Shown in pieces: positions 11,426 to 36,055 of a stretch of DNA of 64,000 bases; the first letter of the stretch is position 1, and each line of letters opens with the position of its first letter. The DNA is taken from assembly GCA_045133615.1 (NCBI GenBank), contig JBGUUQ010000051.1, forward strand, positions 22,197 to 86,196, given 5' to 3'. The notes beneath the pieces are model-generated. The model had not been told where the DNA came from and did not search any database. It saw only the letters and a program-made list of their open reading frames with translations. A program made the position numbers and the translations under genes. Source of the DNA: Muribaculaceae bacterium. Lineage in GTDB: Bacteria > Bacteroidota > Bacteroidia > Bacteroidales > Muribaculaceae.

Positions 11426-12787
11426 ATGAACGTAACATTGGACAAGACCGGTAATGTGAGCGGAATCCTCACCGTTTCGGTTGAAGAAAAGGACTACCAA
11501 GACAAAGTAAAAAATGACCTCAAAGAAATCGGCAAGCGTCACTCAATCCCCGGCTTCCGTCAAGGTCACGTTCCTTTTGGCGAATTGAATCGCCGTTTTG
11601 GCAAGCAAGTTACAAGCGACGTTATCAATCGTGAAGTATACGACGCTGTCACCGGTTATATCCGCGACAATAAACTCGCCATTCTCGGTGAGCCACTCCC
11701 CATCGAAGTTAAAGAGCTCGACCTTAAGAATCAAAAAGACTTTACTTTCCAATACGAAATCGGTCTCTCTCCCGAAATCAACGTTTCTGTAGACAAAGAT
11801 CTCCAACTTCCTTACAACGAAATCGAAGTCTCTCAAGAAATGATTGACCAACAGAGCCAAAGCCTCCGCGAACGCTTCGGCGCTCAAGTTCCCGGCGAAG
11901 AATTCGAACCCAAAGCACTCGTAAAAGGTTCCCTCATGGAACTCAATGAAGATGGTTCGATTAAAGAAGGTGAAGATGCCATCCAAGTTGTAAGCGGCAT
12001 TCTCGCTCCCATGTACTTCAAAAATGCCGAAGAAGCAGAAAAATTCAACGGCAAAAAAGTAGGAGACAAAGTTGTTTTCAACCCCGCTAACGCTTGGAAT
12101 GGAAACGCTGCTGAATTGGCATCGCTCCTCAACATCGACAAAGAAAAAGCAGCCAATGTCAAAGCCGATTTCGAACTTTCAATTGCCGAAATCATCGTTG
12201 TTAAACTCGCCGACCTCAACGAAGAATTCTTCAAAAACGTATTCGGTGACGACAAAGTAAAGACCGAAGAAGAATACTACGCAGCCATCAAAGACATGAT
12301 TGCACGTCAATTGTCTGGAAACAGCGAATTTTTGTTCCGTAAAGATGCCGAAAAGATTCTCCTTGAAAAATACGGAGATGTCGAACTTCCCCAAGAATTC
12401 CTCAAAAAATGGCTTGTAGCTCGCAACGAAGGTCTTAATGCTGAAAACATCGACAGCGAATTTGAAAAGATGCTTCCCTCCCTCAAATGGCAACTCATCA
12501 AAGAACGCATTGCCGCTCTCGCCGAGGTGAAAATCGAAGAAGCCGATGTTCTTGCTCACGCCAAAGCTATTGCAGCAAATCAATTTGCTCAATACGGCAT
12601 GACCGGTATGGACGACGAAACCCTCACCACTTATGCAAAACGCATCCTCGAAGACAAAAACTATCGTCCCCATATCATCGAAGAAGTAGGCGACATCAAA
12701 TTGTTCGATGCCATCAAGGCAAAAGCAACAATCAACACCACCACCGTTTCTCTCGACCAATTCAAAGAAATGGCCAATAACGCATAA
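11426..12787 (+). CDS. tig: trigger factor
   Basis: 453 aa. The ribosome-binding N-domain motif GFRQGHVP is present, and the gene is followed by clpP-clpX, the conserved tig-clpP-clpX arrangement. Confidence 0.93.
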   Translation: MNVTLDKTGNVSGILTVSVEEKDYQDKVKNDLKEIGKRHSIPGFRQGHVPFGELNRRFGKQVTSDVINREVYDAVTGYIRDNKLAILGEPLPIEVKELDLKNQKDFTFQYEIGLSPEINVSVDKDLQLPYNEIEVSQEMIDQQSQSLRERFGAQVPGEEFEPKALVKGSLMELNEDGSIKEGEDAIQVVSGILAPMYFKNAEEAEKFNGKKVGDKVVFNPANAWNGNAAELASLLNIDKEKAANVKADFELSIAEIIVVKLADLNEEFFKNVFGDDKVKTEEEYYAAIKDMIARQLSGNSEFLFRKDAEKILLEKYGDVELPQEFLKKWLVARNEGLNAENIDSEFEKMLPSLKWQLIKERIAALAEVKIEEADVLAHAKAIAANQFAQYGMTGMDDETLTTYAKRILEDKNYRPHIIEEVGDIKLFDAIKAKATINTTTVSLDQFKEMANNA

Positions 12788-19489: not shown

Positions 19490-20245
19490 ATGCTTGCCAA
19501 ACGTATCATACCGTGTCTCGACGTAAAAGATGGCACCACTGTAAAAGGTGTCAACTTTGTCAACTTCCGCGATGCCGGCGACCCCGTTGCCCTCGGCAAG
19601 AAATATAGCGAAGATGGAGCCGACGAACTCGTCTACCTCGACATCACCGCATCCCACGAAGGCCGAAAAACATTCATCGACCTCGTTCGCCGCGTTGCCG
19701 AAAACGTAAGCATCCCATTCACAGTCGGTGGAGGCATAAACCAAGTCGAAGACGTCGAGAAACTCCTCAACGCCGGAGCCGACAAAATATCCATCAACTC
19801 GTCAGCCCTCCGAAATCCCGACTTAATCGACGGTATAGCCCGACGATTCGGCAATCAAGTATGCGTCACCGCTATCGACGCACGCTTCGACAACGGAGAA
19901 TGGATTTGTTACGTAAACGGAGGTCGCATCCCCACCGAGCGCCGTCTTTTCGACTGGGCACACGAAGCCCAGGAACGCGGAGCGGGTGAAATCCTCTTCA
20001 CCAGCATGAACCACGACGGCGTAAAGCAAGGCTTCGCTTGCGAAGCCCTTGCCCGGCTTCACGACATCCTTAGCATCCCCGTCATCGCATCCGGTGGAGC
20101 AGGGGACTACTCTCATTTCCACGACGTATTCACACAAGGAAAAGCCGATGCCGCATTAGCCGCAAGCATATTCCACTTCAACGAAATTCCAATCAGCGAC
20201 CTAAAACAATATCTCCACAGTCGCAATATCGATATACGCTTATAA
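19490..20245 (+). CDS. hisF: imidazole glycerol phosphate synthase, cyclase subunit
   Basis: 251 aa. It has the motifs [14 protein letters not shown] and DELV.LDI. Confidence 0.95.
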
Positions 20246-23051: not shown

Positions 23052-24197
23052 ATGGCAAACTTTCCAATAGGGGAGTTGCAACAACAGCGCACTCCCCTTT
23101 ATTTCTACGATCTAAGCCTCCTTCGACTCACTCTTGAGGCTATAAAAACATACTCTCCCGAACCTCACTACTGCGTTCACTACGCCATCAAAGCCAATGC
23201 CAATCCGGTCATTCTCAAAGAGATATGCGCCGCCGGATTCGGTGTCGATTGCGTAAGTGGGGGAGAAATCAATGCCGCACTCGCAGTAGGCTTCCCCGCC
23301 GACAAAATCGTATATGCCGGAGTAGGGAAGAGCGATTGGGAAATCAACATCGGTTTAGACAACGACATCGCATGCTTCAACGTCGAGTCAGCCCCCGAAC
23401 TTGAAATCATCAATCAACTCGCCGTAGCAAAAGGCAAAATCGCAAATATAGCACTCCGCGTCAACCCCAACATCGACGCACACACCCACCATTACATCAC
23501 CACCGGATTGGCTGAAAATAAGTTCGGAATCTCGATGGAAATGCTCGACACCATCGTTGACAGATGCCTCAATCTGCCCGCCATCAATCTCATCGGCTTG
23601 CACTTCCACATCGGCTCACAAATCACCGACAATGCCCCCTTCCAAATCCTCTGCGAGCGCATCAACGCTCTCCAAGACCATTTTGAAGCAAAAGGCATCA
23701 CCTTCCATAGCATCAATGTTGGAGGAGGTCTCGGCATCGACTACGACACCCCCGACGCAAACCCGATTCCCGACTTCAAAGGTTATTTTGAATCCTTCCG
23801 AAGCAACCTCAAACTACGCAGCAACCAACAGCTCCATTTCGAGTTGGGACGTTCCGTTGTAGCACAATGCGGTTCACTTATCACCCGCGTACTCTATGTA
23901 AAAGAAGGACTCGAAAAGAAATTTGCAATCGTCGATGCAGGTTTCACCGAACTCATTCGTCCGGCATTGTATCAGGCTCACCACAAAATCGAAAACATCA
24001 CAAGCAACGCCCCCGTCGACACCTACGACGTAGTAGGACCCATCTGCGAATCAAGCGACTGCTTCGGTGAAAAAGAGCAACTGCCAGGAGTCTCTCGTGG
24101 CGACCTTCTCGCATTGCGTTCCGCAGGAGCCTACGGCGAAATCATGGCATCGCAATACAACTGCCGCACACTTCCCGCATCATACTTCGCCGAATAA
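23052..24197 (+). CDS. lysA: diaminopimelate decarboxylase
   Basis: 381 aa. It has the fold-III PLP decarboxylase motifs (YAIKAN, HFHIGSQ, GGGLGIDY, GPICES.D), and lysC is adjacent. Confidence 0.9.
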   Translation: MANFPIGELQQQRTPLYFYDLSLLRLTLEAIKTYSPEPHYCVHYAIKANANPVILKEICAAGFGVDCVSGGEINAALAVGFPADKIVYAGVGKSDWEINIGLDNDIACFNVESAPELEIINQLAVAKGKIANIALRVNPNIDAHTHHYITTGLAENKFGISMEMLDTIVDRCLNLPAINLIGLHFHIGSQITDNAPFQILCERINALQDHFEAKGITFHSINVGGGLGIDYDTPDANPIPDFKGYFESFRSNLKLRSNQQLHFELGRSVVAQCGSLITRVLYVKEGLEKKFAIVDAGFTELIRPALYQAHHKIENITSNAPVDTYDVVGPICESSDCFGEKEQLPGVSRGDLLALRSAGAYGEIMASQYNCRTLPASYFAE

Positions 24198-24266
24198 AAT
24201 ATATTGGCGAATACGTCAAGGATAACAGATGTCGATAACGATTGCGAAGCAATCATTAGATAATAG

Positions 24267-24308
24267 CCGGGCATTGAAGTGCTTTCGTACTTCAATGCCC
24301 GGTATTTT
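24267..24308 (+). terminator. rho-independent terminator after lysA
   Basis: CCGGGCATTGAAGT-8 nt-ACTTCAATGCCCGG forms a perfect 14-bp stem followed by TATTTT. Confidence 0.75.
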
Positions 24309-24462
24309 CGCCTAAACAATTCAATTCTGAAAGAATTGTTATTGATTATCAATGAAATTACATCCATTCCTTTTGAAATTTCGAGCATCTCGAAGTCTGT
24401 TTGCAAATTAATGACACTATAACGAGAGAAATCACACAACAGGGCACACCTCCATAAGCCCT

Positions 24463-24495
24463 ATTTAACATAATGTAAGTTATAAGAAAAATATT
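24463..24495. repeat. attL: dif-like site ATTTAACATAA-TGTAAG-TTATAAGAAAA (+ATATT)
   Basis: It has 11-6-11 architecture. The left arm is the exact reverse complement of the E. coli dif XerD arm TTATGTTAAAT. Positions 24474-24495 are repeated perfectly at 31136-31157. Confidence 0.75.
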
Positions 24496-24496
24496 A

Positions 24497-24504
24497 TACA
24501 TTTG
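24497..24504 (+). promoter_or_regulatory. candidate -7 box TACATTTG at the left provirus end
   Basis: Matches TAnnTTTG, 29 nt upstream of the first provirus ATG (24534) and 2 nt inside the att repeat boundary. Confidence 0.4.
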
Positions 24505-24533
24505 CTCTCGTAATTCTAAAATCATTTACAAAC

Positions 24534-24740
24534 ATGAACAAACAAACGAAAAAACAAATCGATTTTGACCGCTACGACGCCGTCAATTTACGCGCTGAAC
24601 TTGAGATGCGCGATGATATTATTTTTGATTTGGAAGGCAAATATAATTCCCTTGTGATGTCTTACAACGCTTTGCTTGAATTTGTAAAAACCATTTTAAA
24701 TAATCCCGAACAATCAATTAAAATCTCAAAACTACAATGA
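24534..24740 (+). CDS. provirus small protein, 68 aa, helical/coiled-coil-like, function unknown
   Basis: It is the first ORF after the att site and candidate promoter, and its stop overlaps the next ATG (ATGA). Confidence 0.5.
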   Translation: MNKQTKKQIDFDRYDAVNLRAELEMRDDIIFDLEGKYNSLVMSYNALLEFVKTILNNPEQSIKISKLQ

Positions 24741-24901
24741 AACGTATCCAACTTGTATCCATCCTCATGGCAACCGCCAATCGTCCTCAAACAATCGCCT
24801 TTGAATCTTACGAAGCGTTCAGCAAGTGGCGCAACGAGAACTACAAAGACATTCTACAGTACACCGTCCAAGAAATCGACTTTGTATCAAATGAACTTTA
24901 A
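24737..24901 (+). CDS. provirus small protein, 54 aa (below the ORF-track size cut-off)
   Basis: My own translation is MKRIQLVSILMATANRPQTIAFESYEAFSKWRNENYKDILQYTVQEIDFVSNEL. It bridges the upstream ORF (ATGA overlap) and the M15 peptidase (11-nt overlap) without any gap. Confidence 0.4.
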   Translation: MKRIQLVSILMATANRPQTIAFESYEAFSKWRNENYKDILQYTVQEIDFVSNEL

Positions 24902-25271: not shown

Positions 25272-25339
25272 AAAAAATCATCTCAATTCTCAACTTCATC
25301 ATCAAGATTTGTAAAGCAATCTTATCCATTTTCAAATGA
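25268..25339 (+). CDS. 23-aa cationic amphipathic/hydrophobic micro-ORF (MKKIISILNFIIKICKAILSIFK)
   Basis: My own translation. The ATG overlaps the peptidase stop (ATGA) and its stop overlaps the Rep ATG (ATGA), so it exactly fills the junction. Confidence 0.3.
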   Translation: MKKIISILNFIIKICKAILSIFK

Positions 25340-26940
25340 AACTCGAAAACTTTATAAGTAACTGCCGACAACCCCAAATCATCTACCGTAATGGACGGAG
25401 TATCTCCGTTCGTTGTGGTAGATGTCCTGATTGCCTCGCCTCCCGTTCCGCTCACCTCACTCAAATGTGCGTATCAGAGCAACGTAAATCTTTTGCTACC
25501 TTTTTTGCTACTCTCACCTATAACGAGTATAACATACCCCGCGCCCATGTTCTCCGTGAAACGCGTGATGATGGACGCTTACGAGTTACTTATATAGATA
25601 AAACCTCACGCCCAACCAAAACCCGCGGATTTAAGCTACTCCCCGAATATAATACCCCTCTCGCCTCTTTCGATGTTGCCGACCCCGCCAACTTCAACGA
25701 CTTTATACAAAAATCTTCAATATTACCCAAATATGCCACAAAGAAACAAATACAATACTACAAGACACATGAAATTGTTCGCTATATCCGTAAAAAGGAC
25801 ATACAGAACTTTTTTAAGCGCTTACGCTTCCGTCTTTCTCGCCTTGGCTACTCGCCGATTACGTTCTACGCTTGCGGTGAATACGGGCCCGACACCTTCC
25901 GTCCACATTTCCACATCTTGCTACACGTCTATGACTCCGAAACTTCCGCCATCATTGAAAAATTTGTGCGTGAAAGTTGGAAACTTGGAACTGTACGTAA
26001 ATTTTCCGCTGTTACCAAACCTTCGGACGTCTCAAGCTACGTTGCGGGCTATGTCAATTCCTTTACTCACCTCCCTCGTTATCTTAGGTTTGATGTCCTC
26101 AAGCCTTTTTCGTCGCATTCCGTTTACTACGGTACTTCGACTTTCGCACCACTTCGAGACTATCTTTATGAAAATCCCGACTGCTCCGCTTTTGAACATG
26201 ATGTACGACTACCTGACCAAACTGTTCATTACTTCCCTACCGCTTCGCTTATGCGTAGAATATACCCCCGATGCTACAACTATGACCGTCAAACTGATAC
26301 GGACCTACTTAAAATATATACATGCTTCACGAAACTATCACAAACGTACAATACAGACAAATGCACCGACCTCTCCTACTACCTCCTTACAGACTCCGAC
26401 AACTTCTACAATAGAACCCTCCTTAACCTCCTCGACATAGGAACCCCCCAACAATCCCCCTACTACTCCCTCTCTACTCTATCTAATAATTACTCCTCCC
26501 TCAATATAGATTTAATCCCCACTTCATGGGACCACTTCGCTACTCTCACCGAGAGTGAAATCGACGAATCGGTTTCACTCTCCTACCAACGTAAAATCTT
26601 TTCTCGTGTCTACTCCACTATTCTAATGTCCAAAAACTTCATAGAATGGAACTGTCAAAACTACTCTCCCCGCACCGTCTTGTCACTCATCAAGCAACAC
26701 TATCAAAACCACAGACTCGACCAACTCCGCCAACAACTTGAAGCACTTCAAGAATATAACTTAATCACATGTAACGATGACTACTCACTATTTTACCCCG
26801 CTTCCTCGACTACCGACCATTACAACTCTTTACTCTCATCATCTTCTTATATCAAGCACATCAACCACCAAAAAGATGTAAAGTATGAAAAAATGATTAA
26901 ACACAAACAACAAAATGACGCTAACTTAATATTTGTATAA
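25336..26940 (+). CDS. Microviridae replication initiation protein (VP4 / gpA-like rolling-circle Rep)
   Basis: 534 aa. It has an N-terminal CGRCPDC zinc-finger-like motif, motif I FFATLTY, the HUH motif HFHILLH (25906-25926), and a double-Tyr motif SYVAGYVNS that mirrors phiX174 gpA YVAKYVNK. Confidence 0.9.
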   Translation: MKLENFISNCRQPQIIYRNGRSISVRCGRCPDCLASRSAHLTQMCVSEQRKSFATFFATLTYNEYNIPRAHVLRETRDDGRLRVTYIDKTSRPTKTRGFKLLPEYNTPLASFDVADPANFNDFIQKSSILPKYATKKQIQYYKTHEIVRYIRKKDIQNFFKRLRFRLSRLGYSPITFYACGEYGPDTFRPHFHILLHVYDSETSAIIEKFVRESWKLGTVRKFSAVTKPSDVSSYVAGYVNSFTHLPRYLRFDVLKPFSSHSVYYGTSTFAPLRDYLYENPDCSAFEHDVRLPDQTVHYFPTASLMRRIYPRCYNYDRQTDTDLLKIYTCFTKLSQTYNTDKCTDLSYYLLTDSDNFYNRTLLNLLDIGTPQQSPYYSLSTLSNNYSSLNIDLIPTSWDHFATLTESEIDESVSLSYQRKIFSRVYSTILMSKNFIEWNCQNYSPRTVLSLIKQHYQNHRLDQLRQQLEALQEYNLITCNDDYSLFYPASSTTDHYNSLLSSSSYIKHINHQKDVKYEKMIKHKQQNDANLIFV

Positions 26941-29234: not shown

Positions 29235-30566
29235 ATGCATATAATATTTCGTGACGAATATGGGACCATTGGTATCCGTGGCGATACCAAAGTCAATCTC
29301 TTCGGAATTGATGACCTTATCATTGGTTCTGCTGCTGCGTCTCTTGGCTCCTCGGTTATTGGTGGTATCTTCGGTTCCTCCTCTCAAAAAGACACCAACG
29401 CTACCAACTTGCAGATAGCCCGCGAGACAAACGAGCAAAACTACAAGATTTGGCAAGAACAAAAAGAGCATAATATCGACATGTTTAACATGGAGAATCA
29501 GGCGAATATCGACATGTTTAATATGGAGAATCAGGCAGCTATAGACATGTGGAATATGCAAAACGCGTATAATGACCCCTCGGCACAAGCCGAGAGGTTG
29601 TTAAACGCCGGTTTCAATCCACAACTCGCTCTCACTTCCTCGACTGCTGCCGGTAATGCTACCTCTGCTCCCTCCGTCGGTTCGCTCTCCTCCGCCTCCG
29701 CTACTCCCGCTCAAGCACCCACCATGCAAGGAACAACCGTTACCTCTCCATTTCAAGTCGCTTGGCAGAACGCTATGCAAGGTATTCAAACCATGGTAGA
29801 CGGCATTAATAAGGCTGCTCTAATGCGCCCTACGATTGACAATTTGAACTCCGGTACAAACGTCAACAACAATCAAGCCGTTAAACTTGGTTTTGAAGCT
29901 AACTATCAGAAGATAGTTAACAAATACGCTCCTACGCTCTTTGCTGAAGATGTTGAGACAAAGAAGTATAATAATGACCTTTTGGCTATGGATGTTACCT
30001 ACGGACGTGAAACGCGACAACTTCAAATAGCTTTGCTTCGTGCCGATTTTGCTTATAAGTCTTTAGACATAGAAAAGCAAACCATTCTTAACGCTTATCT
30101 CCCCGGCGAAAAGCAATTAGATATGATGACTAAAGGCGTGATGTATAGTAATCTTGTCCTCGATGGCAAAATGAAAGCTAAGGATTTGGCAAATTATTTC
30201 ACCCGTTATCTCATGGTAAATATTGCTCATGCTAATGCTCTTAACTCTCAAAAAGAAGGTCAAGACATTAAGAATGAATCCGATAAGCTTGACCTTGACA
30301 ATAAAAAAGCATTTCTCGAAGGATTTAAAACTAAGGAAGACGGAAAAATACTTGAATCGCTTGGCGGCTATTTGGCTGAATCTATGTTATTTGATGCCGA
30401 ATTGCAAGATACGTGGATTAATCCTACTCGTGAAATTGATGCTATTCACGATTATAAAACCGCTAAACGCCGTAAAACTGGAGTTACGGGCTATTTTCAT
30501 GATTTTATTGACCAATTTAGCGAATATGGACAAAAACTTTCCCCCTTTTTTAATTCGGCTAAATAA
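29235..30566 (+). CDS. minor capsid / DNA pilot protein (VP2 / H-like)
   Basis: 443 aa. It has a Gly/Ser-rich N-terminus (IGSAAASLGSSVIGGIFGSSS), Q/N-rich helical repeats and the conserved LLNAGFNPQLAL motif seen in gokushovirus and Alpavirinae VP2. Confidence 0.8.
   Translation: MHIIFRDEYGTIGIRGDTKVNLFGIDDLIIGSAAASLGSSVIGGIFGSSSQKDTNATNLQIARETNEQNYKIWQEQKEHNIDMFNMENQANIDMFNMENQAAIDMWNMQNAYNDPSAQAERLLNAGFNPQLALTSSTAAGNATSAPSVGSLSSASATPAQAPTMQGTTVTSPFQVAWQNAMQGIQTMVDGINKAALMRPTIDNLNSGTNVNNNQAVKLGFEANYQKIVNKYAPTLFAEDVETKKYNNDLLAMDVTYGRETRQLQIALLRADFAYKSLDIEKQTILNAYLPGEKQLDMMTKGVMYSNLVLDGKMKAKDLANYFTRYLMVNIAHANALNSQKEGQDIKNESDKLDLDNKKAFLEGFKTKEDGKILESLGGYLAESMLFDAELQDTWINPTREIDAIHDYKTAKRRKTGVTGYFHDFIDQFSEYGQKLSPFFNSAK
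29472..29570 (+). repeat. 33-bp tandem repeat inside VP2: two near-identical copies plus a degenerate third
   Basis: Copies at 29472-29504 and 29505-29537 differ at 2 of 33 nt and encode NIDMFNMENQA twice. 29538-29570 encodes the diverged AIDMWNMQNAY. Confidence 0.85.
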
Positions 30567-30580
30567 ATTATCTTTGTGGT

Positions 30581-30706
30581 ATGGATATTTTTTTAACATT
30601 TGGACCCTTTGTGCCTTTCTTGTTGCTCTTTGTGGTAATGATATTAGGCGCTATTTGGCTCATTATCATTTTGGTAAAAGCCATTATTAAAGAATTAAAG
30701 AAATAA
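30581..30706 (+). CDS. 41-aa single-pass membrane micro-ORF (holin-like candidate)
   Basis: My own translation is MDIFLTFGPFVPFLLLFVVMILGAIWLIIILVKAIIKELKK: one about 26-residue hydrophobic span and a Lys-rich C-tail. It starts 15 nt after the VP2 stop and is followed by a hairpin plus T-run. Confidence 0.4.
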   Translation: MDIFLTFGPFVPFLLLFVVMILGAIWLIIILVKAIIKELKK

Positions 30707-30726
30707 TCCCTACCCTTTACACTTCG

Positions 30727-30766
30727 GGCGCGCGCGTGCTACACGTGTGCGCCTGTTGTTTATTAT
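30727..30766 (+). terminator. GC-rich hairpin plus T-rich run ending the provirus gene block
   Basis: GGCGCGCGCGTG-cta-CACGTGTGCGCC forms a 12-bp stem with two G-T pairs, followed by TGTTGTTTATTAT. Confidence 0.5.
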
Positions 30767-30836
30767 CCTAAAAGTCGACAAATTGAGGGCTGATCAGCTT
30801 CAGCTCTCTCGATTTATTGGAATAAAACGGAACAAC

Positions 30837-30986
30837 GCGAAGCCCGTAAAAAGATAAAAAGCGAAGCGTCTCCATTTTCGGAAATAACACCGAGCGCGGA
30901 AGACCGCGCGAGACCTCTACGAAAATACGGACGGAGTGCATCCCGTCGAGCGAAGCGAGCGGGACCGCCCTACTCTGATGCGAAGC
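30837..30986 (+). repeat. four same-strand copies of GCGAAGC (30837, 30861, 30950, 30980)
   Basis: These are exact 7-mers read directly from the sequence. About 4 per strand would be expected by chance in the whole 64 kb. Confidence 0.8.
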
Positions 30987-31100
30987 CATTACACTTTTGC
31001 CCGAAAGGGTTCGCGGTTTGCTCTTGCTCCCGCGAACAATATTTCCTTGGCTTATTATAGCAAAAGTGACAGAAAAATATTACCTTTGTAAACTGCTCAC

Positions 31101-31122
31101 TCATGTTAAATTCATGTTAAAT
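31101..31122 (+). repeat. tandem 11-mer TCATGTTAAAT x2 (inverted XerD-arm-like half sites)
   Basis: There are two perfect adjacent copies. ATGTTAAAT is the reverse complement of the attL arm ATTTAACAT. The pair sits 2 nt upstream of the attR arm. Confidence 0.8.
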
Positions 31123-31124
31123 CT

Positions 31125-31157
31125 AATTAACCTATTGTAAGTTATAAGAAAAATATT
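31125..31157. repeat. attR: degenerate-arm dif-like site AATTAACCTAT-TGTAAG-TTATAAGAAAA (+ATATT)
   Basis: The central region and right arm are identical to attL. The left arm differs at 3 of 11 positions. Confidence 0.75.
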
Positions 31158-31254
31158 TCCGTCTCAACCGCGACAAAATTCACATCACCACCTCCACAAA
31201 TTGCATAACACACGAATTATCGTTATCTTTACATCGCAATTCTTATTTTGAATT

Positions 31255-31695
31255 ATGACGTTGCCCTCAAAAATCATATCAACACTTGTTTCCATTACAG
31301 TTGTGATGGCTTCATTGTTGCAATTTCATCACCACGATTGCGATGGCAACATTTACATTCATCTGACCACACTCGACGACATTGCGCTCGGATACTCCGG
31401 TCTGCACATTGACGAATGTAACCATTCCGATGACCATCACCACACCACAGATTGCAACGACCACGAAAATTGCGCACTTCACATCGCCATTTCCAAAGCC
31501 ACAAAACAAAGTCAGCAATCCGTTGCCTCCCCGTCATTCGACTTGTCATATATTTTGGCAGACATTCTTGAATTGCAAAAACCGCAAAATGAAACTCATA
31601 TTTCATACAATACACACATATTTTTCCTAATCTGCCCCAATTCGCAGTTACCCTCATTGCTGCGAGCACCACCGACAATCGCCCAATACAAATAG
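31255..31695 (+). CDS. small membrane-anchored His/Cys-rich protein (putative metal-binding accessory protein of the efflux operon)
   Basis: 146 aa. An N-terminal hydrophobic anchor is followed by HHHDCDG...HIDECNHSDDHHHTTDCNDHENCALH. The gene is immediately upstream of, and co-oriented with, the RND metal efflux genes. Confidence 0.6.
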   Translation: MTLPSKIISTLVSITVVMASLLQFHHHDCDGNIYIHLTTLDDIALGYSGLHIDECNHSDDHHHTTDCNDHENCALHIAISKATKQSQQSVASPSFDLSYILADILELQKPQNETHISYNTHIFFLICPNSQLPSLLRAPPTIAQYK

Positions 31696-31738
31696 TTATA
31701 TATCAACCACTTATCTACTAACCAAATTCTTTTTTTTC

Positions 31739-32947
31739 ATGAAACTACATATTTCTATCCTATCTATAGGACTTGCCTTGGCATGTCTTAGTTGCTCACA
31801 TTCAGCCAAAGACGATGGTCTGGGCCACGACCATAGCCATCATCATCACGAAGAACCCGCCCACACTCATGGTCATCACGAAGAGCCCGAAGGTCATCAC
31901 CACGAACACGAGCACGCCAAAGACGCTCACAGCAACGATGAAATCGTACTCGAACCCTCTGCTGCTCACCGTTTTGGCGTTCAGGTACAAACAATTACGC
32001 CTCGCGACTTCAACGAAATTGTTAAAGTTTCCGGACAAATCATATCCGCACCCGGCGACCAAGGTGTCGCATCTGCCCAATCGGCAGGCATCGTATCCAT
32101 CGCCGGCGGCATCACAGAAGGATGTCGTATCTCCGCAGGAACATCCATAGCACATATATCGGCACAAAAAATGGCTGGAGGCGATCCCAACGCCACCGCA
32201 AAAGCCAACTTAGATGCCACCAAGCGCGAACTCGACCGCATCACCCCTCTACATGCCGACGGCATAGTCTCCACCAAAGACTTCAATGCCGCCAAGCAAG
32301 CCTACGAACTCGCCCGCGCAGCATATTCCGGCAACTCATCCGGTAGCGCAGTTTCCTCCCCGATAGCCGGAGTCATAACCCAGATTCTCGTTCAGCAAGG
32401 CCAATTTGTCGAAGCCGGACAACCCATAGCCGTAATATCTAAAAACTCTCGACTCACATTACGCGCCGACCTTCCGGAAAAATACTACAACTTCCTACCC
32501 ACCATCACCACAGCAAATTTCCGCCCTTCCTACTCCGACTCAATCATATCATTAAGCAAAATCAACGGCACAGTCATATCCGCATCCTCCTCCGCTGCCC
32601 CGTCGCAGTCCGGATATATTCCCGTCTACTTCTCATTCGACAACGACGGCTCTGCCATTCCCGGCACATTTGCCGAGATATATCTCATCGGAGCCACCCG
32701 TCCAAACGCAATAGTCGTCCCTATCGAAGCCATCACCGAGCAGCAAGGCAAATACTACGCCTATGTCCGTCTCGATGAAGAATGTTACGAAAAACGCCTC
32801 GTTTCATTAGGCAAATCCAACGGAAGTGAAGTCGAAATTTTGTCCGGACTCAATATCGGCGACAACGTTGTCTCCCATGGAGCTATCATCGTAAAACTTG
32901 CCGAGTCAAGCGGAGTTATCCCCGAAGGACATAGCCATAACCATTAA
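31739..32947 (+). CDS. RND efflux periplasmic adaptor (CzcB/CusB-like) with a His-rich N-terminal tract
   Basis: 402 aa. It has a lipoprotein signal (LALACLSC), the tract HDHSHHHHEEPAHTHGHHEEPEGHHHEHEH, and then an MFP barrel-sandwich/beta-barrel region. Confidence 0.88.
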   Translation: MKLHISILSIGLALACLSCSHSAKDDGLGHDHSHHHHEEPAHTHGHHEEPEGHHHEHEHAKDAHSNDEIVLEPSAAHRFGVQVQTITPRDFNEIVKVSGQIISAPGDQGVASAQSAGIVSIAGGITEGCRISAGTSIAHISAQKMAGGDPNATAKANLDATKRELDRITPLHADGIVSTKDFNAAKQAYELARAAYSGNSSGSAVSSPIAGVITQILVQQGQFVEAGQPIAVISKNSRLTLRADLPEKYYNFLPTITTANFRPSYSDSIISLSKINGTVISASSSAAPSQSGYIPVYFSFDNDGSAIPGTFAEIYLIGATRPNAIVVPIEAITEQQGKYYAYVRLDEECYEKRLVSLGKSNGSEVEILSGLNIGDNVVSHGAIIVKLAESSGVIPEGHSHNH

Positions 32948-32959
32948 TGCCGTATCATC

Positions 32960-35900
32960 ATGCTTAACAAAATCATACGGTTTTCACTCAACAACCGCAT
33001 CATAGTCCTAATCCTTGCCGGACTATTGACACTCGCCGGTGTATTCGTTCTCACACGCACCGAAGTTGATATATTTCCCGACCTCAACGCCCCCACAGTC
33101 GTCGTAATGACCGAAGCACCGGGATTTGCGCCTGAAGAAGTCGAAAAACTCGTTTCATTCCCCCTCGAGACCTCCGTCAACGGAGCTACAGGCGTACGCC
33201 GTGTACGCTCATCGTCAGCGACAGGCTTCTCCGTCGTATGGGTAGAATTCGATTGGGGTACCGACATCTATCAAGCCCGACAGATTGTATCCGAAAAGAT
33301 TGCAAGCGTAAGCGAACAGCTTCCTCCAGGAGTCAACACCCCCACTCTTGGTCCGCAATCATCCATTCTTGGCGAAATCATGATTATCGGACTCACTGCC
33401 GATTCCACATCCATGAGCGATTTGCGCACACTTGCCGACCGCACCATCCGCCCGCGATTACTCGCCATCGGAGGAGTCTCACAAGTAGCCGTAATCGGAG
33501 GTGACATCAAAGAATACCAAATCCAATTGGCTCCGGAACGCATGAAACACTACAATGTAACCCTCGATGAGGTCACATCATGCGTAGAAGGCATCAACAA
33601 CAATGCTGCCGGAGGCGTACTCTACGAATACGGCAACGAATACATCATCAAAGGCGACGTAAACACCACATCCACCGAAGCCCTTGGCAAAGCCGTTATC
33701 CGCAGCGACCAACAAGGCACAATTCTCCTCGAAGACATCGCCACCGTACAGATTGGCAACAAAATGCCGCGACTTGGTGTCGCTTCCGTTAAGGCACAAC
33801 CCGCCGTACTCATCACCTGCACCAAGCAACCCGCCGTCGGCACCATCGAGTTGACCGAAAAGATTGAGCACGAACTCGCTTCGATGCAAAAAAATCTACC
33901 TCCCGACATCGTTGTATCCACCGACATTTTCAAGCAAAGCGACTTTATTGACAACTCCATCTCCAACCTACAGCAGTCGCTTATCGAAGGTGCCATATTC
34001 GTTATCATCATCCTCTTCCTCTTCTTGATGAACACGCGCACCACCATCATCTCCCTCGTCGCGCTCCCGCTATCCATCATCATCGCCGTACTCGTCCTCT
34101 ACTTCATGGGATTCAGCATCAACACCATGAGCCTCGGTGGTATAGCCATAGCCATTGGATCGCTTGTCGACGATGCAATTGTCGATGTCGAAAACGTCTA
34201 CAAACGCCTGCGGGCCAACCGCTCTCTGCCCGAAGAGCAACGCCGTTCCACACTCGACATCGTCTTCCACGCATCCACCGAAGTCCGCATGCCCATTTTC
34301 AACTCCTCCCTCATCATCATAGCGAGTTTCCTTCCCCTCTTCTTCCTCAGTGGCATCGAAGGACGCATGTTGATACCCCTCGGCATATCATTTATCGTCG
34401 CACTCATTGCGTCCACCATCGTAGCCCTCACCATCACCCCCGTCCTTTGCAGCTACATGCTCGGCACTCCGAAAGCCCTCAACTCTTTGGATAAAGAGCC
34501 GTGGACAACCACAAAACTAAAGGTCGGCTACACCAAAGTTCTGCAATGGTGCTTCGACCACAAACGCATTCTTCTTGGCGGGACTGGCGGATTATTCCTC
34601 CTCGCCGGTATTCTGTTCTTCACCCTCGGTCGAAGCTTTCTCCCCTCTTTCAACGAAGGTTCTTTCACCATCAACGTAAGCACCCTTCCCGGCATCTCGC
34701 TCGACGAAAGCGACCGCATCGGACGTGAAGCCGAGCAGATCATCATGTCCATCCCCGAAGTGCAGACCGTTGCCCGCAAGACAGGTCGAGCCGAACTCGA
34801 CGAACACTCGCTTGGTGTCAACGTCTCTGAGATTGAAGCCCCCTACATCCTCGACAATCGTTCGCGCGGAGAAGTCGTTCGCGAGCTCCGAGCTAAATTG
34901 TCCGAACTTCCCGGCGTAAACATCGAGATTGGGCAACCGATTTCCCACCGCATCGACGCCATGCTCTCCGGTACTGAAGCCCAAATCGCCATCAAACTAT
35001 TTGGCGACGACCTCAATCGGCTCTATTCCATCGGTAGCCAAATCAAAAAAGCGATATCCGATGTCGAAGGCATCGCCGACGTCAACATAGAGCAACAAAT
35101 CGAGCGTCCGCAACTCGACATCCGTCCTCGTCGCGAAATGCTTGCCAAATACGGAATCCCGGTCAACGAATTCACCCACTTCATCGATGTCACACTTGCC
35201 GGACAAGTTGTATCGCAGGTCTACGAACAAGGCTTACCCTACGACATCACCGTACGCCTCGACGACGACCGCCGCAACTCCATCGCCAAGATTTCCGATT
35301 TGATGATCGACAGCAACGTCGGTAAAATTCCCCTAAGCTATGTTGCCGACATCGTTTCAACATCCGGTCCCAACACTATCAACCGCGAAAACGTCAGCCG
35401 ACGCATCGTCATCTCTGCCAACGTCGACGACCGCGACCTCCGCAGCGTAGTCAACGACATCCAAGAGCACATCGCCGAACATATCGAACTCCCCGAAAAC
35501 TACTACATCACCTACGGCGGACAGTTTGAAAGCGAAGCCGAAGCCTCCCGCACACTGGCACTCACCTCCATCGGCGCACTGATTGTGATATTCATGCTCC
35601 TCTACCAAGAGTTCCGCAACATCCGTCAGTCGCTCATCATCCTCCTCAACATGCCGTTGGCCATGATTGGAGGCGTACTGATACTTTGTCTCACCTCCGG
35701 CGAACTAAATATTCCGGCTATCATCGGCTTCATCTCGCTTCTCGGCATCACCACCCGCAACGGCATGCTGCTCATGTCGCGCTACAACCATCTGTGCGAC
35801 GAAGGAATGCCACTGCGCCAACGCATCTTCGTTGGTTCCGCCGACCGTCTCAACCCCATCATCATGACAGCACTCACCTCGGCATTGGCACTCATTCCAA

Positions 35901-36055
35901 TCGCCCTGCGCGGAGGTGAACCGGGCAACGAAATCCAATCTCCGCTGGCAATCGTCATCCTCGGAGGACTGCTCACCTCTACCATTCTCAACGTATTGGT
36001 CGTTCCCGTCGTCTACTATCTCACATATCGAAACAAAGAAAACGTATCAAAATGA
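32960..36055 (+). CDS. CusA/CzcA-family heavy-metal efflux RND pump
   Basis: 1031 aa with 12-TM RND topology. The N-terminus (IIRFSLNNRIIVL) and motifs (GGIAIAIGSLVDDAIV..EN) are HME-RND-like. Confidence 0.92.
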   Translation: MLNKIIRFSLNNRIIVLILAGLLTLAGVFVLTRTEVDIFPDLNAPTVVVMTEAPGFAPEEVEKLVSFPLETSVNGATGVRRVRSSSATGFSVVWVEFDWGTDIYQARQIVSEKIASVSEQLPPGVNTPTLGPQSSILGEIMIIGLTADSTSMSDLRTLADRTIRPRLLAIGGVSQVAVIGGDIKEYQIQLAPERMKHYNVTLDEVTSCVEGINNNAAGGVLYEYGNEYIIKGDVNTTSTEALGKAVIRSDQQGTILLEDIATVQIGNKMPRLGVASVKAQPAVLITCTKQPAVGTIELTEKIEHELASMQKNLPPDIVVSTDIFKQSDFIDNSISNLQQSLIEGAIFVIIILFLFLMNTRTTIISLVALPLSIIIAVLVLYFMGFSINTMSLGGIAIAIGSLVDDAIVDVENVYKRLRANRSLPEEQRRSTLDIVFHASTEVRMPIFNSSLIIIASFLPLFFLSGIEGRMLIPLGISFIVALIASTIVALTITPVLCSYMLGTPKALNSLDKEPWTTTKLKVGYTKVLQWCFDHKRILLGGTGGLFLLAGILFFTLGRSFLPSFNEGSFTINVSTLPGISLDESDRIGREAEQIIMSIPEVQTVARKTGRAELDEHSLGVNVSEIEAPYILDNRSRGEVVRELRAKLSELPGVNIEIGQPISHRIDAMLSGTEAQIAIKLFGDDLNRLYSIGSQIKKAISDVEGIADVNIEQQIERPQLDIRPRREMLAKYGIPVNEFTHFIDVTLAGQVVSQVYEQGLPYDITVRLDDDRRNSIAKISDLMIDSNVGKIPLSYVADIVSTSGPNTINRENVSRRIVISANVDDRDLRSVVNDIQEHIAEHIELPENYYITYGGQFESEAEASRTLALTSIGALIVIFMLLYQEFRNIRQSLIILLNMPLAMIGGVLILCLTSGELNIPAIIGFISLLGITTRNGMLLMSRYNHLCDEGMPLRQRIFVGSADRLNPIIMTALTSALALIPIALRGGEPGNEIQSPLAIVILGGLLTSTILNVLVVPVVYYLTYRNKENVSK

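Follow-up and report, generated by a model that had tools for sequence, protein, structure and literature searches.

What is the function of the hairpin-dense stretch, at positions 30707 to 31135, that follows the last viral gene in the Muribaculaceae DNA examined here, a 64-kb segment that we refer to as the window? Deposited genomes leave this gap of 0.4 to 0.8 kb unannotated, and the original prediction assigned it to replication, as a complementary-strand origin structured in single-stranded DNA (ssDNA). The flagged stretch is the main (large intergenic) non-coding region of a small ssDNA virus integrated into the chromosome of a gut member of the Bacteroidales, and we consider below how it is built, how widely its architecture is distributed, and which of several roles best accounts for it.

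The integrated virus and its large intergenic region

Judged from its encoded proteins and its termini, the element that carries the region is the provirus of a temperate Bacteroidales-infecting microvirus. The flagged region lies entirely within this 6,662-nt provirus, which is bounded at both ends by dif-like repeats and encodes a Rep protein of the HUH, rolling-circle type (gene at 25336-26940; matches to PF23343 and phrog_942), an F/VP1-type capsid protein (PF02305 and phrog_514), a VP2-like pilot protein (phrog_31272), and an M15 endolysin; no integrase domain was found among the scanned provirus ORFs, a set that left out ORF 24737-24901. The order of the elements in the region, 5' to 3' on the packaged and coding strand, is terminator-like hairpin, mini-hairpin array, module of about 100 nt, promoter-like boxes, and dif-like attP. 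The features that frame the structured part are as follows.

24461-24495, + strand: attL, left provirus boundary; dif-like, with an intact host-type arm, ATTTAACATAA-TGTAAG-TTATAAGAAAA
24497-24504, + strand: TACATTTG, an exact Bacteroidetes -7 box (TAnnTTTG); a consensus match only
24534 (ATG), + strand: start of the first phage ORF, with the TACATTTG box 30 nt upstream
30581-30706, + strand: last ORF of the virus, with a hydrophobic product of 41 aa; a TATCTTTG box lies ahead of it at 30569
30725-30765, + strand: block A, a G+C-rich hairpin of 12 to 14 pairs and then TGTTGTTTATTA; terminator-like
30785-30808, + strand: second terminator-like hairpin, GAGGGCTGATCAGCTTCAGCTCTC and then TCGATTTATT, in a segment absent from relative L005
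31081-31088, + strand: TACCTTTG, an exact TAnnTTTG box directly 3' of the module, towards attP; a consensus match only
31101-31122, + strand: two tandem copies of TCATGTTAAAT, adjoining attP in the orientation opposite to that of the att arm
31123-31157, + strand: attR, right provirus boundary; dif-like, with a degenerate phage-type arm (AATTAACCTAT)

The attL and attR sequences are imperfect direct repeats of 35 nt, 91% identical and in the same orientation, with a spacing of 6662 nt. An attB junction is present in L101, where an attL-type arm is fused directly to the right host flank; when an unoccupied site was sought via the flanking host proteins, no contig spanned one, and attB was seen only at the L101 junction and at unitig break-points. 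Each TCATGTTAAAT copy agrees at 10 of 11 positions with TTATGTTAAAT, which we take to be the XerD arm of E. coli dif, and the relative L008 carries TTATGTTAAAT together with TGATGTTAAAG in the equivalent place. A lysA scan of genome contigs placed the host in a group of Muribaculaceae-like Bacteroidales, at no more than 77% identity, and disclosed neither a close genome nor a locus bearing the module. The capsid protein is at most 53% identical to those of deposited genomes, so the virus is only distantly related to them; a DNA search against deposited phages gave weak capsid-gene matches only for the provirus and none for the non-coding region. Single-protein capsid locus searches of genome and viral contigs returned no relatives, and an alignment-based search was needed.

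All of the stems and the four copies of GCGAAGC listed in the original prediction were recovered at their positions in a check of the sequence, and the accompanying estimate of about 4 copies of a given 7-mer per strand in 64 kb agrees with shuffles, which gave 8.67 for both strands together. The region had been described as clearly richer in G+C than the rest of the element; it is richer, but the difference is moderate (46.9% in the flagged span versus 43.0% in viral coding DNA), with a value of 52% in the structured part at 30707-31050. The absence of a credible ORF was borne out, the only candidates being one of 51 aa (+ strand, GTG start) and one of 73 aa (- strand, 30768-30989). Both were rejected as genes: relatives have lost or rearranged the segments in which they lie, and the - strand ORF covers a segment missing in L005. 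Folding with DNA parameters, a check proposed at the outset, gave -74.3 kcal/mol for the + strand, clearly better than shuffled controls at -53.2 +/- 4.2 (z = -5.0, 0/100 shuffles), and z = -3.3 for the - strand. Rfam 15 yielded no match at gathering thresholds for the window and none at E <= 1 for 30500-31300.

The first stem of the region is formed by GGCGCGCGCGTG (30727-30738) and CACGTGTGCGCC (30742-30753) around a cta loop, its 12 pairs comprising 10 Watson-Crick and 2 G.T pairs. Block A, with its stem at 30725-30755 followed by TTGTTTATTA, lies 19 nt past the stop codon of the last ORF and is the highest-ranked terminator-like site of the provirus. It is kept with compensatory changes in L005, L008 (twice), and L108 to L111, canonical stem and T-run terminators stand in its place in L193 to L195, and nine relatives have hairpins in the equivalent position. 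The last ORF is itself called as a gene on L001 to L004, and L005, L008, L108, L109, and L193 to L195 have a comparable short ORF ahead of the hairpin. The first hairpin had been counted as part of the ssDNA origin; the stem is present, but its T-rich tail and its position suggest that it is better regarded as a transcription terminator, the simplest reading being an intrinsic terminator that belongs to the last gene. Exact TAnnTTTG boxes occur only downstream of the structured block (31081 and 24497), with none within 30577-31080, and L008 also has a box at the TACCTTTG position; the terminator and promoter calls alike are consensus matches.

Mini-hairpins and the three-helix module

Between the terminator-like hairpins and the promoter-like box, the + strand carries the following structures.

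30837-30843, + strand: GCGAAGC, 1 of 4, in a segment that is variable between relatives
30856-30962, + strand: block B, 107 nt, containing GCGAAGC copies 2 and 3, the 30894-30909 hairpin, and ACGGAGT
30861-30867, + strand: GCGAAGC, 2 of 4, conserved in L005 at 6359
30931-30937, + strand: ACGGAGT mini-hairpin with a GGA loop and an A-T outer pair, conserved in L005 at about 6428
30950-30956, + strand: GCGAAGC, 3 of 4, capping the imperfect stem TCCCGTCGA / GAGCGGGA
30972-31082, + strand: block C, a three-helix module, conserved and about 100 nt long, from the match to covariance model R1 and the helix parse
30980-30986, + strand: GCGAAGC, 4 of 4, mini-hairpin 1 of block C
30992-31000 with 31060-31068, + strand: P1, the long-range helix of block C
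31001-31008, + strand: mini-hairpin 2 of block C, CCGAAAGG, included in CCC-gaaa-GGG at 31000-31009
31009-31016 with 31030-31037, + strand: P3, a hairpin of block C with a 13-nt loop
31038-31059, + strand: J, the single-stranded segment of block C, with CTTGGC at 31046-31051 and ending in ATA
31069-31072, + strand: ACAG tail of block C

GCGAAGC is the sole 7-mer of the window with at least four nonoverlapping same-strand copies within 150 nt, and a four-copy cluster of any 7-mer arose in 7 of 300 dinucleotide-preserving shuffles. Two mini-hairpins of the same class, ACGGAGT and CCGAAAGG, had escaped the initial list, and together with the four GCGAAGC copies they have the form X-C-G-N(1-2)-A-G-X' within 30837-31008. 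Individual copies vary in their fate between relatives: the third is GCTATGC in L005 and is therefore not kept as a GNA loop, and the fourth is ACGAAGT in L005, L110, and L111. Block B, which includes the hairpin GCGCGG-aaga-CCGCGC, is 86% identical to the corresponding DNA of L005 to L007, compared with about 70% for coding DNA there.

Such a cluster is not peculiar to the window virus: relatives carry 6 to 10 mini-hairpins per region. Among 80 relatives, 108 copies of GCGAAGC fall in the 44 kb of non-coding + strand and 28 in the 455 kb of coding DNA, and its reverse complement occurs once in their non-coding DNA; these relatives share ancestry, so their motif counts cannot be taken as independent events. 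After dereplication to 49 genome clusters, the density of X-CGNAG-X' was 4.38/kb on the non-coding + strand versus 0.41/kb on the non-coding - strand, with 0.70 to 0.80/kb in coding DNA and at least one occurrence in 45 of the 49 genomes. The loops on the non-coding + strand were GAA (88), GGA (47), GCA (3), and GTA (2). In host-type Bacteroidales intergenic DNA the motif has a density of 0.50/kb per strand, as against 11.7/kb in the flagged region.

The sequence of the second mini-hairpin in 68 unique modules is GCGAAGC (31), CCGAAGG (17), GCGAAAGC (8), ACGAAGT (5), CCGGAGG (3), GCGAACGC (2), CCGAAAGG (1), or CCGTAGG (1), with triloops in 57 and tetraloops in 11. The outer pair covaries among G-C, C-G, and A-T (GC 21, CG 18, AU 5) and is complementary in all 68 unique variants, and the inner C-G pair is invariant in 43/43 triloop versions. 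Published measurements rank the stability of GNA loops as A > G > C > T, with GAAA equal to GAA, and give a melting temperature of 76.5 C for both d(GCGAAGC) and d(GCGAAAGC) (PMC13037366). With an invariant inner pair, a covarying outer pair, and loop usage that follows the DNA stability order, the comparative data support the initial view that the GCGAAGC units behave as Hirao-type DNA mini-hairpins, d(GCGNAGC) / d(GCGNNAGC). Mini-hairpins of this kind resist nucleases, are bound poorly by single-stranded DNA-binding protein (SSB) when in tandem, and have been noted at the primase sites of G4, St-1, and alpha3, in RSF1010 ssiA (CCGAAGG), and in N4 virion-RNAP promoters (GCGGAGC) (PMC13037366).

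The fourth GCGAAGC and the CCCgaaaGGG element, together with TTCGCGG-13 nt-CCGCGAA (31010-31036), belong to block C, for which the general layout is mini-hairpin, P1, mini-hairpin 2, P3, an unpaired strand, P1', and an ACA(G/C) tail. The unpaired strand, J, is the most conserved unpaired stretch of the module and in all lineages is 20 to 23 nt long, with a pyrimidine run, CTYG(G/T/A)C, 3 to 5 nt, and ATA, the last part being A/T rich. Covariance model R1, derived exclusively from relatives about 30% identical in capsid and without the window, gave a single, full-length match in the window (30972-31082; 26.5 bits, E = 0.006) and none in 1.22 Mb of host-type DNA. It also matches the homologous site in L008, L005, L109 to L111, and L193 to L195; R1 E-values are rough, and several of the matches are individually weak (E from 0.15 to 2). 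L109 to L111 were missed under default filters; L071 and L072 scored marginally (E from 1.6 to 5.4) even when the filters were turned off, and their group probably belongs with the bearers of the module.

Pair counts were taken from an anchored helix parse with shuffle controls, since a MAFFT alignment of close-group modules misregisters P1 and was left out of them. Module cells were paired in 97.9% of cases versus 21 to 41% with slid partners, seven module pairs showed changes on both sides, and G.U-type pairs occupied 3 of 931 cells in the helices. P1 has 7 to 8 Watson-Crick pairs in 14/14 lineage representatives, with 12 different arm sequences; P3 has at least 7 pairs in 13/14, with 13 different arm sequences; and an unconstrained DNA fold recovers both. 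The 5' arm of P1 was also considered as a -7 box, a promoter mimic of the M13/ssoA kind, and was rejected: it has 1 to 3 mismatches and is T-rich for pairing reasons. Nearest-neighbor folding of the module is equal on both strands (z = -3.1 and -3.05), so the argument for a strand rests on the mini-hairpins and on motif asymmetry. The + strand is also the mRNA-sense strand, and covariation alone cannot separate ssDNA from RNA.

In the comparison with relatives, which had been put forward as a check, the mini-hairpin cluster proved to be a clade-wide trait. On these sequence comparisons, the fold is common to the window virus and to relatives with about 30% capsid identity, and the region is under selection for intramolecular structure of the + strand.

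Candidate roles of the folded strand

We suggest, by analogy with known systems, that the mini-hairpin array and the module together constitute a folded-ssDNA replication signal, and most likely the complementary-strand origin, a reading that we hold with roughly even confidence. Array and module would act as folded ssDNA of the + strand, signaling the conversion of ssDNA to the replicative form (RF): after entry, the genome would be coated by host SSB, while the very stable mini-hairpins and capped helices would stay folded and bind SSB poorly, leaving a defined structured opening in which host primase or RNA polymerase could start a primer on the exposed strand of the module. We infer that it is ssDNA, and not RNA, that adopts the structure, and that the structure excludes SSB and hosts priming; what is observed is strand specificity, selection for base-pairing, a DNA-type signature, deep conservation, and flanks with terminator-like and promoter-like character. 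G4-type origins are intergenic and act only in the viral strand; the position and the strand bias seen here agree with this, the mini-hairpins being non-coding and biased to the + strand at the densities given above.

The main rival, and a live one, although we consider it somewhat unlikely, is that the module is the viral-strand (+) origin, with Rep binding P3 and/or P1'-ACAG and nicking the single-stranded CTTGGC...ATA segment of J near CTTG|NC; the nick would start and terminate rolling-circle synthesis, and the fold on the displaced + strand would help termination and circularization. The conservation of J as CTYGNC...ATA in all lineages is favorable to this reading, as is its resemblance to the phiX174 nick region CAACTTG|ATATTAATAAC, which we verified at the annotated origin (4306). 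In the usual HUH-endonuclease arrangement a hairpin lies 5' of a single-stranded nick site, and CTTGNC...ATA does lie 3' of a hairpin, as an HUH-Rep nick site would. Nor is a CTTGATA conserved elsewhere: the window virus, L005, L194, L195, L023, L024, and L072 lack the string, its occurrences in other relatives show no positional conservation, and no other candidate nick site was found. The literature yielded no usable account of CTTGATA or of a nick site in gokushoviruses or alpaviruses. The match to CTTG|ATA is, however, partial, since the third base varies (CTCG in many) and the bases after the G differ. The phiX174 origin, moreover, works without a fold inside gene A, supercoiled duplex RF is unlikely to extrude a long-range helix around about 60 nt, and a nick site would leave 5 to 10 mini-hairpins over 300 to 400 nt unexplained. 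A (+) origin in the module would leave room for a (-) origin in the neighboring mini-hairpins, an arrangement like that of the Ff intergenic region.

It is improbable, in our estimation, that the structures act in RNA, as a 3'-untranslated region or terminator cluster, as the 5' leader to the early genes, or as a small non-coding RNA read from the + strand. The sense of the strand would permit it, the first hairpin with its T-tail makes a good terminator in which two G.T pairs would become G.U, and some copies have GAAA or GCAA loops, which in RNA are classic GNRA tetraloops. A two-pair stem with a GNA triloop is, however, unstable in RNA, r(GCGAAAGC) melting at 39 C compared with 76.5 C for the DNA (PMC13037366), and the preponderance of triloops in mini-hairpin 2, the near absence of G.U-type pairs from the module helices, and the lack of an Rfam match even at E <= 1 all point away from RNA. 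The block also sits past the terminator-like hairpin and ahead of the nearest exact promoter boxes, and the motif is without enrichment in host intergenic DNA. Very improbable, too, is an accessory role in Xer-mediated integration or excision, whether as a folded, CTX-phi-like attP or in the binding or positioning of XerC/XerD. The module does lie 50 to 160 nt upstream of the dif-like attP in temperate relatives, XerD-arm-like 11-mers in tandem adjoin attP, and some BMV proviruses have extra dif-like sites (Krupovic & Forterre, PMC3091885), but the module is equally conserved in a distant IMG/VR group in which we found no positionally consistent or strand-biased dif-like site. A loose dif-like scan of that group was uninformative, with + strand matches in 52 genomes and - strand matches in 62, mostly in coding DNA. 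The attL and attR sites are plain direct repeats, and we found neither a second att site in inverted orientation, with the central region that a CTX-type forked hairpin would require, nor a XerC arm beside attP. The reading to which we give the least weight makes the block a signal for packaging, genome condensation, or protection from nucleases or defense systems, with no part in initiating DNA synthesis. Packaging was raised at the outset as a possibility, and a packaging hairpin does lie beside the origins in the Ff intergenic region; it is disfavored because phiX174-type microviruses couple packaging to the synthesis that Rep and the C protein drive at the (+) origin, and they do without a separate signal. 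No data point specifically to capsid contact, and a localized array would shield only about 5% of the genome, notwithstanding the nuclease resistance of mini-hairpins (PMC13037366).

Known origins and the significance of the region

The proposed complementary-strand origin has its closest functional counterparts in the primase-dependent oric of G4, St-1, and alpha3 and in the F-G (-) origin region of phiX174, likewise intergenic, strand-specific folded-ssDNA signals in microviruses, and the G4-type logic, in which hairpins stay SSB free and mark the start site, is common to our proposal. The association of the motif with phiX174-type phages, noted in the original prediction, proved correct: the sole GCGAAGC of phiX174 (2358) lies in the F-G intergenic region, and in G4 the annotated primer for synthesis of the complementary strand (3970-3997) includes GCGAAAGC at 3977. 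The G4 and phiX174 (-) origins have one mini-hairpin each, whereas this clade has 5 to 10 and a three-helix module with a long-range closing helix, and the hosts here, unlike those of the G4-type phages, are Bacteroidales. R1 gave no credible match to G4 or phiX174 (7.8 bits or less, E > 3), and the link to their origins is one of analogy, not homology.

In organization, the best analogue is the intergenic region of the Ff phages (M13/f1), where some 0.5 kb of non-coding DNA follows the last gene and contains, in this order, a terminator, ssDNA hairpins, and replication origins just before the next transcription unit; it accommodates both the (-) and the (+) origin readings. The Ff phages are of an unrelated family with an unrelated Rep, their hairpins mimic a sigma-70 promoter for RNA polymerase, and we know of no mini-hairpin array in them. 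The plasmid ssi and sso sites (RSF1010 ssiA/ssiB; sso of rolling-circle plasmids) are strand-specific folded-ssDNA priming signals as well, although they are plasmid borne and of different architecture, ssiA being recognized by a plasmid-encoded primase and ssoA by host RNA polymerase. In ssiA, a CCGAAGG mini-hairpin supports recognition by the RepB' primase (PMC13037366); among the variants of mini-hairpin 2, CCGAAGG ranks second in frequency. With respect to the (+) origin, J resembles the phiX174/pC194 nick site CTTG|ATA, which we verified in phiX174 as CAACTTGATATTAATAAC, in having CTTG and an A/T-rich run to ATA, unpaired beside a hairpin, but it lacks the exact consensus, with a variable third base and two extra bases after the G.

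Among viruses, BMV1 to BMV7 and the Alpavirinae are the same kind of element as the window virus, with the order Rep-capsid-pilot and no integrase; the BMV proviruses, like that in the window, are about 6.1 to 6.7 kb long and sit in Bacteroidales chromosomes between imperfect direct repeats of the dif-like kind, and their description makes no mention of hairpins or of a structured non-coding region (Krupovic & Forterre 2011, PMC3091885). Intergenic DNA hairpins with compensatory substitutions were reported in the reekeekee- and roodoodoo-microviruses and tied tentatively to negative-strand initiation, a function that, according to those authors, cannot be certified (Olo Ndela et al. 2022, PMC9865509). 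Those viruses belong to other clades with other hosts and have one or two plain hairpins, and the report is without a mini-hairpin motif, a multihelix module, or strand-asymmetry statistics. A search of the literature found no description of such mini-hairpin clusters for Bacteroidetes microviruses. We put forward tentatively, as something short of an even prospect, that the arrays and the module represent a previously undescribed class of ssDNA initiation signal in a very large clade of gut Bacteroidales microviruses, possibly a combined (-)/(+) origin.

Few DNA viruses of the mammalian gut are as abundant as the Bacteroidales microviruses, and the region described here provides a concrete, testable candidate origin for them. 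The covariance model locates it down to about 30% capsid identity with no false matches in 1.2 Mb of host DNA, and from the strand bias the packaged strand of a metagenomic microvirus contig can be recognized simply. The comparative evidence also indicates that the "extraordinarily stable" DNA mini-hairpin, until now a biophysical curiosity with few biological sightings, is a selected structure in nature. If our reading is correct, this would be the first natural setting in which mini-hairpins are seen, by covariation and strand asymmetry, to be selected as structures; it would supply a sequence signature with which to orient and annotate thousands of metagenomic microvirus genomes, and it would give a direct handle on ssDNA priming in the Bacteroidales, with a target for engineering or for the study of that process.

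The provirus, its attachment sites and its relatives

The window is a Bacteroidales chromosomal segment (the best named relatives of its lysA gene are from Muribaculaceae, at 70-77% identity) that carries an integrated microvirus, laid out as follows.

23052-24197, +: diaminopimelate/ornithine-type decarboxylase gene (lysA), the host gene left of the provirus
24198-24533 and 31158-31254: insertion site, shared with L008, L109 and L110
Provirus gene, +: M15 peptidase/endolysin, between the decarboxylase gene and the efflux operon
Provirus gene, +: rolling-circle Rep (PF23343, phrog_942)
Provirus gene, +: F-type major capsid protein (PF02305, phrog_514)
Provirus gene, +: 146-aa protein in the scaffolding-protein position
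Provirus gene, +: DNA pilot protein (phrog_31272)
Last provirus ORF, +: 41-aa hydrophobic ORF
31739 onward, +: HlyD/AcrB efflux operon, host genes right of the provirus

Bounding the provirus are two imperfect direct repeats of 35 nt, at 24461-24495 and 31123-31157 (91% identical, 6,662 nt apart), and in contig L101, which comes from the sample that also gave L003, the attL-type arm is joined directly to the right host flank, giving an attB junction; the hairpin-dense region at 30707-31135 is therefore entirely viral, and it makes up most of the one large intergenic region of the virus, ending at attP. Bacteroidetes microvirus proviruses with dif-like att sites of this kind are already known (Krupovic & Forterre; PMC3091885).

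No close DNA relative was found among deposited phages, and the nearest deposited capsids, about 50% identical, come from rodent-faeces microviruses. A search of metagenome assemblies for capsid homologues yielded loci L001-L008 and L109-L112, comprising the same provirus again (L001-L004), a relative at 74% capsid identity assembled as a tandem (L005-L007), divergent proviruses (L008, L109 and L110; capsid 55-63%) inserted at the very same host locus, and free-genome-sized contigs (L111 and L112). An alignment-based search added 80 IMG/VR microvirus contigs at about 30% capsid identity, and the deposited genomes L193-L195 each have a 585-833-nt gap after the pilot gene in which the region is unannotated.

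At least four divergent microviruses (each with a capsid 55-63% identical to the others' groups) occupy one intergenic site between lysA and 146-aa-HlyD-AcrB in related hosts, which looks like an integration hot spot; it may not be the terminus dif, because GC skew keeps its sign there. On the - strand the host-type att site has the sequence TTTTCTTATAA-CTTACA-TTATGTTAAAT, with a right arm identical to the XerD arm of E. coli dif; the phage-derived arm at attR is degenerate (7/11 XerD-arm positions), a pattern shared with elements that exploit Xer but have no good XerD arm in attP. Adjoining attP are tandem 11-mers, two copies of TCATGTTAAAT at 31101-31122 that point the opposite way to the att arm and match the XerD arm at 10/11 positions each, and the equivalent place in L008 (about 12427-12448) holds TTATGTTAAAT and TGATGTTAAAG; the tandem 11-mers may serve as additional XerD binding sites or be left over from earlier recombination. 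The segment from the conserved module to attP (30975-31400 vs L008 12298-12725) is 91% identical, equal to host-flank similarity, against only about 69% for the genes, which suggests that the prophage right end was exchanged or retained by recombination while the remainder was replaced. A unit of small TM ORF, hairpin and ~150 nt is duplicated in L008 (11631-11810 and 12086-12270), and the two tandem virus copies in L005 have junction sites (positions 33 and 6714) that differ in their arms (ATTTTACATAA and ACTTAACAGAT); both arrangements look like products of repeated Xer-type integration.

Folding and architecture of the region

Every stem listed in the original prediction is present where it was placed, the first with 10 Watson-Crick and 2 G.T pairs, as are the four GCGAAGC copies, and two further mini-hairpins of the same class occur (ACGGAGT at 30931 and CCGAAAGG at 31001). 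About four GCGAAGC per strand had been expected, in keeping with 8.67 over both strands in window shuffles; no other 7-mer in the window reaches four non-overlapping copies within 150 nt, and a cluster of that size of any 7-mer arose in 7/300 dinucleotide-preserving shuffles. The region is also G+C-richer, as noted by eye (46.9% over the span and 52% over 30707-31050, vs 43.0% in viral coding DNA), and with DNA parameters the + strand folds at -74.3 kcal/mol vs -53.2 +/- 4.2 for shuffles (z = -5.0; - strand, z = -3.3). Neither tRNAs nor Rfam matches, even at E <= 1, were found in it. Its parts and the nearby promoter-like boxes are listed here.

24497, +: exact TAnnTTTG box directly after the att core, 30 nt before the first phage gene
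30569, +: exact TAnnTTTG box preceding the small ORF, conserved in relatives
30725-30765, +: block A, a G+C-rich hairpin and T-rich tail, 19 nt after the last ORF's stop codon
Between blocks A and B, +: variable stretch holding GCGAAGC no. 1 and another terminator-like hairpin
30856-30962, +: block B, with GCGAAGC nos. 2 and 3, ACGGAGT and the GCGCGG/CCGCGC hairpin
30972-31082, +: block C, the module common to all relatives and the core finding
30980-30986, +: mini-hairpin 1, GCGAAGC
30992-31000 and 31060-31068, +: P1, CACTTTTGC paired with GCAAAAGTG
31001-31008, +: mini-hairpin 2, CCGAAAGG
31009-31016 and 31030-31037, +: P3, GTTCGCGG paired with CCGCGAAC, 13-nt loop
31038-31059, +: J, a 22-nt unpaired strand that contains CTTGGC and ends in ATA
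Block C, +: module tail, ACAG
31081, +: exact TAnnTTTG box directly 3' of the module

The first stem had been counted among the origin hairpins; from its T-rich tail and position 19 nt past the stop codon, block A is read instead as a putative transcription terminator. It is the best terminator-like site of the provirus and is conserved in L005, L008 (twice) and L108-L111, where it again follows the matching small ORF and shows compensatory changes; L193-L195 have textbook stem and T-run terminators in its place. The hairpin itself (30727-30753) has strictly alternating purine-pyrimidine runs (GCGCGCGCGTG / CACGTGTGCGC), and because the variant in L005, L110 and L111 (GCGTGTGCGCG / CGCGTACGCGC) keeps the alternation, the sequence is Z-DNA-prone. 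Block B is 86% identical to L005, vs about 70% in coding DNA, a comparison of two lineages only.

Matches to the Bacteroidetes -7 box, TAnnTTTG, are enriched in the window (70 vs 41.5 expected), and no exact + strand box lies within 30577-31080. The mini-hairpin array and module are thus flanked by a terminator-like hairpin and the next promoter-like boxes, all of them consensus matches only, a location that would fit a DNA-level role. The box TATCTTTG (30569-30576), conserved in L005, L108, L193 and L194, lies 5-10 nt before the small hydrophobic last ORF and points to either an internal promoter or a leader that is tightly conserved; a lysis-related membrane peptide is a possible product, and the genome also bears the M15 endolysin. 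Once the virus is integrated, its promoter-like box TACCTTTG (31081-31088), just left of attR, is directed at the host operon 146-aa / HlyD / AcrB (31255-36055), so that the prophage could change how this operon is expressed.

Mini-hairpins and the three-helix module across the clade

Across the 80 distant contigs, the non-coding + strand (44 kb) has 108 copies of GCGAAGC and coding DNA (455 kb) has 28, with its reverse complement found once in non-coding DNA; relatives share ancestry, and such counts are not independent events. When the genomes were dereplicated by k-mers into 49 clusters, 45/49 carried the more general motif X-CGNAG-X', at 4.38/kb on the non-coding + strand, 0.41/kb on the non-coding - strand and 0.70-0.80/kb in coding DNA, with loops GAA (88), GGA (47), GCA (3) and GTA (2); composition-matched permutations mostly gave 4-21 occurrences, one reaching 68. 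Because the gaps of the deposited relatives carry 6, 10 and 9 motifs, a mini-hairpin cluster is the norm for the clade. At one fixed module position, 68 unique sequences have GCGAAGC (31), CCGAAGG (17), GCGAAAGC (8), ACGAAGT (5), CCGGAGG (3), GCGAACGC (2), CCGAAAGG (1) and CCGTAGG (1), so that the outer pair covaries around an invariant inner C-G pair. On these comparisons the mini-hairpins are a selected, strand-specific, clade-wide feature.

A host terminator habit was ruled out as the source of the motif, because the non-coding part of 1.28 Mb of Bacteroidales chromosomal DNA has 0.50/kb per strand vs 11.7/kb on the region's + strand. Downstream of host lysA (24232-24302) are two hairpins, a GCGAAGC-centred stem (GATTGC-GAA-GCAATC) and a perfect 14-bp inverted repeat (CCGGGCATTGAAGT / ACTTCAATGCCCGG), both probably terminators for that gene; about 70 nt beyond lysA is also where many assemblies break (L010-L013 and L017). 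Other host-DNA copies of GCGAAGC occur as pairs, inverted 9 nt apart at 20031/20040 (20031-20046) and direct 48 nt apart at 54218/54266 (54218-54272).

The distant-group module reads ttaattaa-GCGAAGC-ccct-AGTTGTG-t-(mini-hairpin 2)-aaa-TCCGAG-ttatcct-CTCGGA-tt-ctcc...CTTGTCCATAAACG-CACAACT-cacac. In the 49-sequence alignment A3 the proposed structure has 97.9% of cells paired vs 21-41% with slid partners, seven pairs are changed on both sides, and shuffles never attain the observed values on 4/5 measures. A covariance model (R1) built from distant-group module sequences alone has one match in the 64-kb window, both strands searched: 30972-31082 (+), full length, 26.5 bits, E = 0.006. It also matches the corresponding homologous sites in L008 (E = 0.02) and L005 (E = 0.15), with filters off in L109 (0.017), L111 (0.33), L110 (2) and L072 (1.6), and deposited genomes L195 (28.3 bits, E = 3e-4), L193 (0.026) and L194 (1.2), E-values that are rough and several of them individually weak; searched against 1.22 Mb of host-type DNA it gives no match at E <= 1, and against G4 and phiX174 none that is credible. 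In an anchored parse, P1 has 7-8 Watson-Crick pairs in 14/14 lineage representatives (12 different arm sequences) and P3 at least 7 pairs in 13/14 (13 different arm sequences), lengths seldom attained in shuffles, and both helices are recovered when the window's module is folded as DNA without constraints; two-pair mini-hairpins are beyond what nearest-neighbour energies can score, and for the module these energies do not separate the strands. Both the length of J (20-23 nt) and its pattern are conserved: a pyrimidine run, CTYG(G/T/A)C and an A/T-rich stretch ending ATA, in that order.

Function of the element

Published DNA mini-hairpins have GNA loop stability in the order A > G > C > T, the melting temperature of r(GCGAAAGC) is just 39 C, and SSB binds tandem mini-hairpins poorly (PMC13037366); covariation and loop use in the clade match this behaviour. 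DNA rather than RNA is favoured, because a two-pair stem covaries and triloops outnumber tetraloops 57 to 11 at the fixed module position, and an RNA-level function is less likely. We favour a complementary-strand origin, because the only known function needing such an element is initiation on SSB-coated viral ssDNA, for which there are specific precedents, and we hold this prediction with about even confidence. The mini-hairpins would hold the region in a folded, SSB-poor state, with the start site presented by the module. The association with origin regions of phiX174-type phages mentioned in the original prediction is borne out in that the only GCGAAGC of phiX174 lies in its F-G intergenic region; GCGAAAGC of G4 is inside the annotated primer, beside the annotated complementary-strand origin, St-1 and alpha3 carry GCGTTAGC, RSF1010 ssiA carries CCGAAGG, and GCGGAGC is found in N4 virion-RNAP promoters (PMC13037366).

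The main rival, that the unpaired CTTGNC...ATA strand of the module is the Rep nick site, we hold with lower confidence; J resembles CAACTTG/ATATTAATAAC of phiX174, and CTTGATA is conserved nowhere else in these genomes, and such a site would be compatible with a complementary-strand origin. A Xer accessory role and a packaging or protection role are less likely. The closest organisational analogue is the Ff intergenic region, which holds a terminator, ssDNA hairpins and both origins in one block.

DNA mini-hairpins, including their presence at a few priming sites, are already known, and conserved intergenic hairpins in two other microvirus clades have been given the same tentative interpretation (PMC9865509). 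Our literature search found no paper tying Bacteroidetes microviruses to mini-hairpins, in line with the original remark that such a cluster was not known to have been described, and none reporting them in microviruses beyond G4, St-1, alpha3 and phiX174. Judged from sequence comparison, the multi-copy, strand-specific, covarying array and the three-helix module, which is retained at capsid identities as low as about 30%, would be new, and together the data show what appears to be + strand-specific base-paired DNA that has long been under selection in this ssDNA phage's main non-coding region.
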